Shown here: positions 33,996 through 38,048 of the stretch, in pieces | Position numbering within the stretch: position 1 is the stretch's first letter | Layout: the number at the start of each line of letters is the position of its first letter | Assembly (NCBI RefSeq): GCF_017996735.1 | Contig: NZ_JAGOGJ010000006.1 | Coordinates: 46,295-110,294 of the forward strand | From: Niveispirillum sp. | Lineage (GTDB): Bacteria; Pseudomonadota; Alphaproteobacteria; Azospirillales; Azospirillaceae | DNA: 64,000 nt | Reading direction: 5' to 3' | Notes under the pieces: generated by a model | What the model was told of the DNA's origin: nothing | The model's input: only the letters and a program-made list of their open reading frames with translations | Databases searched by the model: none | Translations under genes and position numbers: made by a program

Positions 33996-34147
33996 CAATA
34001 CTATTTTACGATAACAACCGTATTGATCATTTTATGTCTCGGGTCCATGTTCATCTCAACGGCGCTGCACTGCACACCAAACGGTGCAGAAACAAGAAGC
34101 GGCCCGCACGAGACACCAGAGAGCCCCACCAGGCCAGGAGTTGAGAG

Positions 34148-35434
34148 ATGTCCCCGTTGGACCAGACCCAGAGCATCGACCTCGCCGCCATCCACGCCAA
34201 GCGCTTTGACGGCATCAAGCGCGATTTCACGGCCGAGGATGTGCGCCGTCTGTCCGGGTCGGTGAAGATCGAGTACACGCTGGCCGAAATGGGCGCGCGC
34301 CGCCTGTGGGAACTGCTGCACACCCGGCCCTATGTCCACACGCTGGGCGCCTTCACCGGCAATCAGGCCCTGCAGCACGTCAAGGCCGGCCTGGAAGCCA
34401 TCTACCTGTCGGGCTGGCAGGTCGCGGCTGACGCCAATCTGGCCGGTCAGATGTATCCCGACCAGTCGCTGTATCCCGCCAACTCCGTCCCGGCCGTCGT
34501 GAAGCGCATCAACAATGCCTTCCAGCGCGCCGACCAGATCCAGACGGCCGAAGGCAAAGGCGACACCTACTGGTTCGCGCCGATCATCGCCGACGCCGAG
34601 GCCGGCTTCGGTGGCCCGCTGAACGCCTTCGAACTGATGAAGGGCATGATCGAGGCCGGTGCCGCCGCCGTTCACTTCGAAGACCAGCTGGCCTCTGAAA
34701 AGAAGTGCGGCCATCTGGGCGGCAAGGTGCTGATCCCGATCCAGCAGTTCATCCGCACCCTGAACGCTGGCCGTCTGGCCGCCGATGTCTGCGGCACCTC
34801 CACCCTGGTGGTCGCCCGTACCGACGCCGAGTCGGCGCAGCTGATCACCAGCGACGTGGATGAGCGCGACCATCCGTTCATCGACCGCAATGACCGCACG
34901 CCGGAAGGCTTCTTCCGCATCAAGAAGGGTGTCGGCGTCGATTACTGCATCGCCCGTGCCCTGGAATATGCCCCCTATTCCGACCTGATGTGGTGGGAAA
35001 CCTCCAAGCCGAACCTGGACGATGCCCGCCGCTTCGCCGAGGCCGTGCATAAGAAGTTCCCGGGCAAGATGCTGGCCTATAACTGCTCGCCCTCCTTCAA
35101 CTGGAAGGCCAACCTGGACGACGCGACCATCGCCAAGTACCAGGCCGAGCTGGGCGCCATGGGCTACAAGTATCAGTTCGTGACCCTGGCGGGCTTCCAC
35201 AGCCTGAACCTGGCGACCTTCGAACTGGCCAAGGGCTACAAGGAACGCGGCATGGCCGCCTATTCCGAGATGCAGCAGCGTGAATTCGCCGCCGCCGATC
35301 AGGGCTTCACCGCCGTGAAGCACCAGCGCGAAGTGGGTACCGGTTATTTCGACGCGGTGGCCGTGGCCATCTCTGGCGGTACGTCCTCGACGACGGCCAT
35401 GAAGGACAGCACCGAGACCGATCAGTTCCATTGA
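34148..35434 (+). CDS. aceA: Isocitrate lyase
   Basis: [29 protein letters not shown] signature, [22 protein letters not shown]. Confidence 0.98.
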
Positions 35435-35459
35435 TCGACATCTCAGTTACCTCAGCTTC

Positions 35460-35776
35460 GATCCGCCCTTCTTCCTGAACGGAAGGGCGGGTCCGCCGGG
35501 GGAAGGGGCTGCATCCTTTCCCCGGCTCTTGGCCCCCCAGGCTGGGACCTTTCCGCCTCCCTCCGCGCTGGATGGGAGGGGGCGGCGGAAAGCCGGCGGA
35601 CGGCGCGATGGATCGCCGACACCACCGGATCGTACCGGCCACGGGGCCCTTTCAGAACCAGATGATGGCGGGCGCTCTCCGCCATCGTCTCCGGGGTCCG
35701 GCCCGCAACCGGGCCCCGGTCTCCGATCCCAGGATGATGATCGCACCGTCTGCCCGGCGACAAGGGTGGGCGGTGC
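35460..35776 (+). ncRNA. Candidate structured RNA: tandem array of 7-8 hairpins in the aceA 3' region
   Basis: Stems at 35460-35493, 35495-35526, 35549-35592, 35593-35628, 35660-35690, 35691-35719, 35743-35776; stem mismatches in four of them are G-U on the + strand. Confidence 0.45.
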
Positions 35777-35865
35777 GTCTTCATGTCCCGCCCCCTTTAA
35801 AAAGGTTCCGTGACCCGCCACGTCCCGATCTTCCACCCTGAACCCCGACCGGAGGAGAATAGCAG

Positions 35866-36006
35866 ATGGATGGTTTTACACCCCTTGCCCTGGAAGAGGA
35901 TCAGATGCTGACGGCGGTTCCGCCGTCGCTGGTGGAGGCCGGTGAATGGGTCGCGGTGCGCGCCGGTGACAGCGCGATGATGATCTGGTTCCCCACGGGG
36001 GATTGA
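35866..36006 (+). CDS. 46-aa small protein MDGFTPLALEEDQMLTAVPPSLVEAGEWVAVRAGDSAMMIWFPTGD (below the ORF-track cutoff)
   Basis: SD GGAGGA at 35851-35856; host-like codon usage; terminator-like hairpin follows. Confidence 0.65.
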   Translation: MDGFTPLALEEDQMLTAVPPSLVEAGEWVAVRAGDSAMMIWFPTGD

Positions 36007-36043
36007 CCCTCTCCCGTTCCCCTCCCCTCCATCCCTGTTGGCA

Positions 36044-36081
36044 AACGCCCTGGCGCCCCGTCGCCGGGGCGTTGTCGTTTT
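36044..36081 (+). terminator. Terminator after the small ORF
   Basis: AACGCCCTGGCG / CGCCGGGGCGTT arms followed by GTCGTTTT. Confidence 0.6.
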
Positions 36082-36278
36082 GGCGGCTGCGTCGCCCTGG
36101 TTTATTCCAGCTCACGCCTCTTCTTGTATCTGAGGCTTACAAGTATATGACATATACAATGTTAACGAGTAAATGATTTGCCGGTCATACGACCTATCGT
36201 TAGTCTTCCGTCATTCAGCAGGAACGGGGGCGCCCCAGCGAACCGCCGCCGGTCGCCTGCCACAGGGGAGGCAAGGGA

Positions 36279-37988
36279 ATGACCGACATACTGGATATTG
36301 CGATCGTGGGCGGTGGCGTGACCGGCACCTATTGCGCCTGGCGCCTGACGGGCGAACAGGGGATCACGGGCGCCAAGGTCGCGGTTTTCGAATATAGCGA
36401 CCGTATCGGTGGCCGGCTTTACACCAAGACCATTCCGGGCATGCCCAATATCGCCGCCGAATTGGGCGGCATGCGCTATATCCCGCCCAGCGAAGGGGAC
36501 GACGCCTCCAACCAGCCCATGGTCAGCAACCTGATCGATGCCCTGGACCTGCCCTCGCACATCTTCCTGATGGGCAATCCCAAGCCGGGGCCGGACGGAC
36601 AGCCCATCGGGGAAAAGGACAACATCTTCTACCTGCGCGGCAAGCATCTGAAGATGAAGGAACAGTCCGACCCGGACAAGGTGCCCTACAACCTGTCCTG
36701 GAACGAACGCGGCAAGACGGTCAACGACCTGCAGGTCTTCGCCTTCGATCTGCTGGTACCGAAGAACCGGCGCAACTCGCTGAACGCACTGATGGAAACC
36801 ACGGTGTTCGGGCACCCGCTCTATACCTATGGTTTCTGGAACCTGATGAGTCAGACCCTGTCGTCGGAGGCCTATCAGTTCATGAAGGATGCCGGCGGCT
36901 ATGACGCCAATGTCGCCAACGCCAATGCCGTGGCCCAGTTGCCCGCCACCGAATATGCCAATACCAGCGGCTTCAAGGCCATCACCGGCGGGTATCAGCG
37001 CCTGCCCCTGACGCTGGCCGAACAGGCGGCCGCGCAGGGCGCCGACATCCGCATGAACCGCCGCATCTCCCGGATCGAACGCGACCAGGACGGTCTTTAT
37101 CTGCTGACGGTCGTGGAAACGGAAACCCAGCTTGTCTATGCCGACCTGGGCGGCCTGCGCGAGGTGACTCGGGACAAGGAAGGGGTGGAACCCAGCATCG
37201 TGAAGGCGAGGGACATCATCCTGGCCCTGCCGCGCCGGTCGCTGGAACTGATCGAATGGGTGGAATGGAAAAAGCCCGACGTGAAGGCCATGGTCGATTC
37301 GGTGCTGATCCAGGACGCGTTCAAGCTGCTGCTGGCCTATGATTATCCGTGGTGGGAGGCACAAGGCCTGGTGGCCGGCCGCTCCATCACCGATCTGCCG
37401 GTCCGTCAGATCTATTATTTCGGGACGGAGGAGGATCAGCCGCATGGGGAGAAGGGCAATACCCGTTCCCTGCTGATGGCCTCCTACAATGACATCACCA
37501 CCGTCCCCTTCTGGAAGGGTCTGGAAAAGGGTGCGCCCTTCCTGGGCCGTCTGCCTGAAGGGGTGAAGAGTGTGGCCAGGGAGCGGTCGGGGTCCGGTCA
37601 GGAAGGCACGCCCGTGCCGCTGGCCGAATGCATCGCCACCGACGCCATGGTGGCCAGCGCGCATTCCCAGATCCTGGCCGTCCACGGTCTGGTCGATGTC
37701 GATCAGCCCTATTCCGCCATCTATCACGACTGGTCGGGCGACCCGTATGGCGGCGGCTGGCACGAATGGAAGGCGGGTTTCCGCTACGACAAGCTGATGC
37801 CCGCCATCCGCCAGCCGGTGCCCGACGAACGTGTCTTCATCTGTGGCGAGGCCTATTCCAACAATCAGGGCTGGGTCGAGGGCTGCCTGCAGACCGCCGA
37901 GCATGTGCTGCTGGAGAAGTTCGACCTGCCCTGGCCCGCCTATCTGGCGCACCTGAAGGACAACCAGGCCGAGGTGCTGGGGCCGTAA
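36279..37988 (+). CDS. Flavin monoamine oxidase / L-amino acid oxidase family FAD enzyme
   Basis: IAIVGGGVTG dinucleotide fold, SDRIGGRLYT, ELGGMRY, C-terminal ICGEAYSNNQGWVEG; no signal peptide. Confidence 0.85.
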   Translation: MTDILDIAIVGGGVTGTYCAWRLTGEQGITGAKVAVFEYSDRIGGRLYTKTIPGMPNIAAELGGMRYIPPSEGDDASNQPMVSNLIDALDLPSHIFLMGNPKPGPDGQPIGEKDNIFYLRGKHLKMKEQSDPDKVPYNLSWNERGKTVNDLQVFAFDLLVPKNRRNSLNALMETTVFGHPLYTYGFWNLMSQTLSSEAYQFMKDAGGYDANVANANAVAQLPATEYANTSGFKAITGGYQRLPLTLAEQAAAQGADIRMNRRISRIERDQDGLYLLTVVETETQLVYADLGGLREVTRDKEGVEPSIVKARDIILALPRRSLELIEWVEWKKPDVKAMVDSVLIQDAFKLLLAYDYPWWEAQGLVAGRSITDLPVRQIYYFGTEEDQPHGEKGNTRSLLMASYNDITTVPFWKGLEKGAPFLGRLPEGVKSVARERSGSGQEGTPVPLAECIATDAMVASAHSQILAVHGLVDVDQPYSAIYHDWSGDPYGGGWHEWKAGFRYDKLMPAIRQPVPDERVFICGEAYSNNQGWVEGCLQTAEHVLLEKFDLPWPAYLAHLKDNQAEVLGP

Positions 37989-38048
37989 GCCGCCCCAGCC
38001 CACGCCCGCCCCCATCCTTCACCTGCAATCCTACGGGAGATGGCGTCC

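Follow-up and report, generated by a model that had tools for sequence, protein, structure and literature searches.

A structured RNA family attached to the 3' end of aceA in Niveispirillum and related Azospirillaceae

The aceA locus and the anatomy of the RNA

The window analysed here, a 64,000-nt stretch of a Niveispirillum sp. contig, carries on its + strand the isocitrate lyase gene aceA (34148..35434; Pfam PF00463, E = 3.7e-102), and the gap between this gene and the next start codon (35435-35865, 431 nt) contains ten inverted repeats. On the same strand the gap is followed by an ORF of 46 aa (MDGF...EWVAVRAGDSAMMIWF, 35866..36006) that has a Shine-Dalgarno sequence (GGAGGAG) and is probably a second cistron, and then by the first canonical intrinsic terminator after aceA (36044..36083), a 12-bp stem followed by GTCGTTTTGG. 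Further downstream lies a flavin amine-oxidase-like gene (36279-37988, + strand) whose best NCBIfam match is VioA-like (E = 1e-23); an ORF of 617 aa on the opposite strand (36162-38015) matches no family and is a shadow of the + strand gene.

The element itself occupies 35459-35784 of the + strand and folds into ten helices, such that two hairpins lead into a five-helix branched domain, which is followed by two lineage-specific hairpins and a long terminal hairpin. The initial annotation had described a row of back-to-back stems from 35460 to 35776. The middle, however, is a branched domain in which the outer stem P3 surrounds four further helices, and the 3' boundary lies slightly further out at ∼35784. 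When the arms are read, the four stems that it named are found where it placed them, and their non-Watson–Crick positions are all T-G or G-T: one each in 35460-35493, 35495-35526, and 35660-35690, and three in 35742-35777.

A spacer of 24 nt (35435..35458, + strand) with neither a terminator-like nor a promoter-like site separates the aceA stop from the first helix, and it is not conserved. The first hairpin, P1 (35460..35493), has 13 bp and a loop, UCCUGAAC, of what we call type A, which reads GCUGAAY in distant members of the family described below; across 14 genomes 98% of its cells are paired and both sides have changed in 9 of its 13 pairs, as they have in seven of eight pairs in the wide family. 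P2 (35495..35526; 12 bp, loop GCUGCA) shows both-side changes in 10 of its 12 pairs, and an alignment of the loops makes its counterpart in distant members GGCGCG-CAGGAU-CGCC, which is of type B.

The branched domain (35531..35648) is formed by P3 (35531-35536/35643-35648; both-side changes in three of six pairs) and P4 (35540-35548/35632-35640; four of eight pairs), which together enclose P5 and P6/P7. P5 (35549..35592) is a 16-bp hairpin with both-side changes in 10 of 16 pairs, and its loop, GCGCUGGAUG, is homologous in the loop alignment to the GCUGAAKGG loops of distant members; the 12-nt loop block CGCTGGATGGGA (35566-35577) is invariant across 13 aligned Niveispirillum genomes. P6 (35593-35599/35622-35628) and P7 (35601-35605/35614-35618) together span 35593..35628, and P7 carries the loop CGAUGGAU. 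All five P7 pairs are without variation although the neighbouring helices covary, and the 19-nt block that comprises P7 and its loop (CGGCGCGATGGATCGCCGA, 35601-35619) is likewise invariant in 13 aligned Niveispirillum genomes and is also intact in N. irakense.

The loops of the four core hairpins are related to one another, two of them reading GCUGAAY or GCUGGAU and two NNGGAUC, with P1 and P2 standing free and P5 and P7 standing inside P3/P4. Given that the P5 loop of the window (GCUGGAUGG) corresponds to GCUGAAUGG elsewhere, and the AUGGAUC of P7 to CAGGAUC, the core (35459-35652) is an internal duplication of a two-hairpin A-B unit that presents a related loop theme four times.

Beyond the core the element is more variable. 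P8 (35660..35690) is present in 8 of 14 Niveispirillum genomes and conserves the loop GCGCUCU, which in genome G009 is retained while the arms have been replaced; P9 (35691..35719, 11 bp) is found in the same relatives. In two loci only, L039 (G007) and L040 (G014), the two hairpins are separated by the insertion of a long, perfect palindrome, GTGTGATTGACGGT...ACCGTCAATCACAC, that may be a mobile hairpin element. The terminal hairpin P10 (35734..35784; ∼20 bp, loop GGCGACAA) has no U-tract in this genome. It takes the same fold in all 14 Niveispirillum carriers, which have the loop core GCGACA in common and differ in their arms (GCACCG, GGCGCC, GCCGGCC). In this genome and in G006, GGGCGG (35768-35773, within the stretch 35764-35800) can pair either inside P10 or with CCCGCCC (35787-35793), and the latter motif, followed by CCUUUAAAAA, could form an alternative 3' hairpin.

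Structural conservation and distribution

The whole gap (35435-35865) folds on the + strand at -223.5 kcal/mol (z = -4.5; matched by 0 of 100 shuffles) and on the - strand at z = -2.1, while the 194-nt core (35459-35652) reaches z = -4.9 and -3.7 on the two strands, respectively; the comparison with shuffled sequence that the initial annotation had proposed as a check thus comes out in favour of a structure. The minimum-energy fold of the single sequence is identical to the comparative consensus, and each Niveispirillum relative folded alone yields the same architecture. Wobble pairs identify the strand as well: the pair alignment contains 102 G-U cells against 10 A-C cells, which indicates that the strand selected for folding is that of aceA, as the annotation had supposed from a handful of G-U pairs.

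Both strands of the region contain open frames of 89-129 aa, as is expected at 68% G+C. The variable columns are nevertheless spread over the three codon positions as 39/40/45 in the element, compared with 3/3/69 in the last 300 nt of aceA (14 genomes), and the indels that separate relatives within it measure 1, 2, 4, and 5 nt, none a multiple of three. A protein-coding gene is rejected on this showing, there being neither a third-position excess nor frame-preserving indels, and the earlier statement that no convincing ORF is present can be upheld.

A BLAST search with the region finds matches in 15 of 16 genomes of Niveispirillum, the genus of N. irakense, N. lacus, and N. fermenti, and none in the other genera of the family. 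R1, a covariance model of the core with 194 positions and 67 pairs, has exactly one match in each of 14 of the 16 Niveispirillum genomes and none in 114 genomes of 18 other genera. In the resulting alignment 96.3% of 918 pair cells are canonical and both sides have changed in 38 of the 67 pairs, where these covariation counts are cell counts on related sequences and not independent events. None of 500 shuffles reaches any of five measures, and when the 3' partners are slid by one to three columns pairing falls to 44-59%. Because the sequences were aligned to the model, the alignment favours it; the independent single-sequence folds agree with it. The prediction of structural conservation in relatives is therefore borne out within the genus.

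The same plan reappears, with unrelated primary sequence, in two Niveispirillum-level genomes that R1 does not match (G003, G010) and in the genera g4, g30, and g31, where the hairpin arrays sit behind aceA genes of 92-95% identity. In these distant loci H1 has the loop GCUGAAN and H2 the loop GGYGCG..GGAYCGCC, and an outer stem surrounds H3 (GCUGAAKGG) and H4 (GGCRCG..GGAKSGCC). With its filters off, R1 places its best match, weakly, exactly at the array in six of seven distant loci, on the aceA strand. A second model (R2) was built from the seven distant sequences only (G003, G010, G018, G137, G122, G123, G124), and in a whole-genome search it returns the window element as the single match in that genome (35464-35648, C60:81758-81942; 60.9 bits, E = 2e-7, full length). 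The window element thus has the defining features of the family, H1 (A loop), H2 (B loop), and an outer stem around H3 (A) and H4 (B), located 3' of aceA on the same strand. R2 also matches 12 other Niveispirillum elements; N. irakense, missed under stricter filters, scores 64.9 bits with filters off.

In total R2 has one match each in 20 of the 130 Azospirillaceae genomes searched, which belong to 4 of 19 genera, and the family as a whole counts 21 of the 130 genomes and four genera; an order-level search covered the same 130 genomes as the family-level one. No R2 match was found in ∼400 other alphaproteobacterial genomes of 306 genera, a search that doubles as a specificity control and in which stricter filters may lose weak matches. 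The R2-derived structure is 90.3% paired on the alignment of 20 sequences, with both-side changes in 28 of 41 pairs. The first nucleotide of the RNA lies 20-135 nt 3' of the aceA stop, on the same strand, in each of the 21 carriers, so the tie to aceA drawn in the initial annotation holds for position and strand throughout. The aceA proteins of carriers are 92-99% identical; family members with a divergent aceA (77-88% identity) are without the RNA, and several have a different small gene in its place. We conclude that this is a real and previously undescribed family of structured RNAs, confined to one clade of Azospirillaceae and invariably joined to aceA at its 3' end, conserved in structure, and present as one copy per genome in a fixed position on the aceA strand.

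Two observations concern the surroundings of this distribution. In RNA-less Azospirillaceae and a neighbouring family (L056, L094, L096, L058), another conserved small gene, M..NRFWVVGGEYKDTRF...GPF.SYE.A...W, lies 40-70 nt after aceA and presumably resembles DUF4170. In genera g2 and g3 (L053 in G016; L054/L095 in G017 and G127), simpler hairpins stand behind aceA with loops that contain GCUGGA (ACGCGCUGGAUCGUG; GACGCUGGAGCGUC, the latter twice), and to judge by these the theme of the loops may have existed before the complete RNA did.

Comparison with catalogued RNAs gives no identity. At gathering thresholds Rfam 15 has no match in the whole window, the best sub-threshold scores in 35300-36100 being 15-25 bits against cut-offs of 50-80, and nine family members from the four genera have no Rfam match at E ≤ 0.1; a description of an aceA-3' RNA was not found in the open-access literature. 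The proposal that the structured RNA is real and undescribed is accordingly supported from both sides, by covariation and by the lack of an Rfam match. A dispersed repeat of the REP/BIME or MITE kind is rejected, because blastn against the 7.47-Mb assembly returns the element itself and chance matches of ≤21 nt; R1 and R2 each have one match per genome. Nor is the location that of a riboswitch: every carrier has the RNA 3' of aceA, and only 15 of 21 have it 5' of a small ORF, at a variable distance.

Several motif-level leads were also discarded. The family-wide motif GGCGCRMWGGATCGCC is frequent in Azospirillum genomes, but its matches fall within conserved coding genes, and the 16-mer GGCGCGCAGGATCGCC occurs one to seven times per Azospirillum-like genome inside orthologous protein-coding genes; a reversed-pattern control gives no guard against conserved coding sequence. 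Matches to the short loop motifs in the window's own genome are mostly due to chance and lie in coding sequence. The core pattern has five matches outside Azospirillaceae, and of the two examined that in Azonexus is apparently coding and that in Dongiaceae stands in an unrelated context. A pseudoknot between the CUGAA loop and a UUCAG tail after the outer stem can be drawn in close relatives only and is absent in distant ones.

Transcript context and the downstream small gene

A scan of 34000-36300 detects no promoter-like site, and no terminator-like site is found in 35435-35865. An own promoter for the RNA was rejected, since none was found and conservation is lacking upstream of P1, where three relatives have inserts. 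The inserts, found in the spacers of G008, G014, and G011, are unrelated GC-rich stretches of 60-110 nt. Given the missing promoter-like site, the unconserved spacer, and these unrelated inserts, co-transcription with aceA is favoured. In G008 (L038), G014 (L040), and G011 (L041) the inserts share ...GCCCGGCG(C/A)TTGAGGGAA, and a similar stretch (GGCGCGGATGCGCCCGCCCGGCGAC) occurs downstream of the RNA in G006; they look like a small dispersed repeat of Niveispirillum genomes.

The P10 U-tract is present only in N. irakense, G005, G013, and G015, four genomes that are without the small ORF, and in these P10 looks like the aceA terminator. By tblastn the 46-aa ORF is found in 9 of 14 Niveispirillum genomes, and related ORFs lie 3' of the RNA in G003, G010, G018, G137, G122, and G123, so that the ORF or a relative (44-71 aa) follows the RNA in 15 of 21 carriers and in three genera. 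These proteins take the form MD[GR][YF]...W[VMT][AV][VF]..G[DFY][SA] with an invariant MD start, and they match no family in Pfam or NCBIfam; the ORF is a real, conserved small gene. We take it to resemble CsrA in a short motif. A kinship with CsrA is unsupported both by the Pfam scan of the ORF and by a six-frame search of the genome for CsrA.

At least five carriers keep the RNA without the ORF (N. irakense, N. fermenti, G005, G013, and G015). This weakens the earlier suggestion that the RNA is a leader of the 46-aa ORF, while the presence of the ORF 3' of the RNA in most carriers leaves room for an intercistronic role.

The start of the small ORF is always AUGGAY. In genus g4 (L127 in G137; L129 in G018) the start codon lies in a hairpin, GGCGCGAUGGAUCGC, some 66-68 nt after the core, and this hairpin agrees with nt 1-15 of the P7 hairpin of the window, which has 16 nt (GGCGCGAUGGAUCGCC, 35602-35617). 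The resemblance may mean that the loop motif and the ORF start are read by the same factor, or it could be a coincidence that follows from the conserved Met-Asp start.

Possible functions and known systems

The most likely function of the RNA is to control the aceA message after transcription. Our preferred explanation, to which we assign a probability of roughly one half, is that it acts in cis, as a module in the 3' UTR or between the cistrons of the aceA transcript, and serves stability, processing, and the docking of a factor. The RNA domain would be transcribed as an extension of aceA mRNA at its 3' end; in this genome it would form the intercistronic part of an aceA-RNA-small-ORF transcript that probably ends at 36044-36083. 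Stacked GC-rich helices, whether they lie between cistrons or close a message at its 3' end, are known to block 3' exonucleases and to set differing levels of neighbouring cistrons. The GC-rich helices and the terminal hairpin might similarly stop 3'-to-5' exonucleases and so give aceA a stable 3' end or processing product, while the four sequence-invariant loops could dock a putative RNA-binding factor that governs how long the aceA message lasts or how well it is translated, and possibly how much aceA is made relative to the small protein.

A plain exonuclease block needs neither invariant loops nor a branched fold, and stabilisation alone therefore under-explains the anatomy; the invariant 12-nt and 19-nt blocks, the invariant P7 stem, and the branched fold together point to a specific partner. 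The absence of CsrA, the want of a convincing pairing with the aceA 5' region, and the missing U-tract of P10 in this genome have to be counted against the cis-acting module. The absence of CsrA taken together with the absence of extended complementarity nonetheless favours a module acting in cis. For the first of these points, the loops are similar to CsrA sites, but a six-frame search with PF02599 detects no CsrA in the window's own genome, in 19 other carriers (of 21 in all), or in four non-carrier relatives, whereas E. coli, B. subtilis, and T. maritima, as positive controls, are matched. For the second, the conserved loops have only 5-6 nt matches in the aceA 5' region, none of them conserved, and no extended complementarity to that region or elsewhere in the genome was found. 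It is position alone that suggests a link with control of the glyoxylate shunt, as the initial annotation proposed.

Precedents exist for control of this gene at the level of its message. In Caulobacter the stability of aceA mRNA is regulated via CspC, and the aceA transcript extends over a small ORF 3' of the gene (PMC4551563). In C. glutamicum the aceA 3'UTR controls mRNA decay via RNase E/G (PMC7821165, citing Maeda and Wachi 2012).

It is possible, if unlikely, that the domain is instead excised from aceA mRNA, or driven by a promoter of its own, as a stable trans-acting RNA and serves as a multivalent decoy for an RNA-binding protein in the manner of CsrB or RsmZ, its four similar loops titrating a different protein. 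Four hairpins with near-identical loops in a duplicated unit would suit such a role, as would the type B loops (CAGGAUC, AUGGAUC, CUGGAUG), given that the CsrB repeat is CAGGAUG. The fold is moreover compact and very stable and lies between A/U-richer single-stranded spacers that may be RNase E sites, and the start region of the small ORF (AUGGAUGG here, the full hairpin in g4) is like a type B loop and might be a natural target of the same factor. A decoy for CsrA in the strict sense is rejected because no searched carrier has CsrA. GGA is found in two of the four core loops of this genome (CUGGAUG, AUGGAU), and among distant members the loops read CAGGAU or CUGGAU in H2 and H4 but GAA in H1 and H3. 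Against a titrating RNA, the loops number only four, two of them GAA and not GGA in most distant members, and no genome has a second locus with these hairpins. Rather doubtful, in our estimation, is the proposal that the RNA serves mainly the small ORF, as its leader or as a regulator between the cistrons, acting on read-through at the terminal hairpin or on synthesis of the 46-aa protein. Distant genera, too, have the ORF 3' of the RNA, the poor U-tract of P10 in ORF-bearing genomes would make a leaky terminator where four ORF-less genomes have a strong one, and in this genome GGGCGG can alternatively pair with CCCGCCC, which is followed by CUUUAAAAA. Yet at least five carriers keep the full core without the ORF, the distance from core to ORF ranges from 64 to 341 nt and includes unrelated inserts, the fold contains no pairing that sequesters the Shine-Dalgarno sequence, and the alternative pairing is confined to this genome (G000) and G006.

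A more speculative extension, which we consider distinctly improbable, would make the RNA one half of a new post-transcriptional control system in CsrA-less alphaproteobacteria, in which its four GCUGRAY and NNGGAUC loops form a multivalent platform for a small RNA-binding protein; the binder could be the conserved 44-61-aa product encoded downstream, whose start region copies the loop motif. Were this true, expression of the glyoxylate shunt would be coupled to the availability of that protein, and a metabolic mRNA would contain a functional analogue of Csr/Rsm. At the other extreme, the element might have no specific function and consist of GC-rich hairpins or decayed terminators, or be a protein-coding or minus-strand feature, as one might suppose from a genome of 65% G+C with long open frames on both strands and from a - strand core that also beats its shuffles (z = -3.7). 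This reading is already contradicted and carries next to no weight: more than half of the R1 pairs (38 of 67) have compensatory changes, the stems vary while the loops are invariant, the architecture is kept across four genera below BLAST identity such that a model from other genera recovers the element, codon periodicity is absent, and the ratio of G-U to A-C is 10:1.

The aceA-3' RNA is a genetically tractable case, in that it is single-copy, has a fixed partner gene and invariant loops, and counts Niveispirillum irakense among its culturable hosts. From it one could learn by what means a 3' domain sets enzyme output at the isocitrate branch point, and it might reveal a new RNA-binding factor in a bacterial class without CsrA. 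Its immediate reach is limited by a narrow distribution of four genera, and the family alignments are suitable for an Rfam entry.

To our knowledge, few metabolic genes of bacteria carry at their 3' end a large, branched RNA backed by covariation, most of the bacterial 3'UTR elements that we know of being short, AU-rich or simple hairpins with little conservation. GC-rich intercistronic stabilisers are represented by the puf hairpins of Rhodobacter capsulatus and by the REP sequence between aceA and aceK of E. coli, which are co-transcribed, lie 3' of a highly expressed cistron, and are expected to stop 3' exonucleases and to uncouple upstream from downstream levels. These are simple hairpins or dispersed repeats, whereas the aceA-3' RNA is single-copy and has invariant loops, a five-helix junction domain, and covariation. 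The CcsR or 'cuckoo' RNAs of Rhodobacter and other 3'-derived sRNAs of alphaproteobacteria form similar arrays of stem-loops with a conserved loop motif, in the cuckoo RNAs the anti-Shine-Dalgarno CCUCCUCCC, and are co-transcribed 3' of a protein gene. Both groups are alphaproteobacterial, but here the loops are GCUGRAY or NNGGAUC and there is no Rfam match.

The Csr/Rsm decoys (CsrB, CsrC, RsmX/Y/Z) share with the present RNA several hairpins that display the same short GGA loop (here CAGGAU, AUGGAU, CUGGAU), and by analogy this suggests multivalent binding of one protein. They differ in that the carriers searched are without CsrA, no Rfam model of Csr/Rsm matches, only four loops are available, of which half are GAA in most members, and the present RNA has a branched domain and is joined at its 5' side to a coding gene. 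A parallel in context is the aceA 3'UTR of C. glutamicum (Maeda and Wachi 2012), where aceA output is set after transcription through the 3' end (PMC7821165, PMC4551563). That element is a short, single stem-loop targeted by RNase E/G in an actinobacterium, and it is reportedly not conserved in close relatives, whereas the aceA-3' RNA is ∼200-330 nt long, branched, spread over four genera, and unrelated to it in sequence. What the two have in common is a structured 3' element on the isocitrate lyase message, which in C. glutamicum governs its decay (PMC7821165, PMC4551563).
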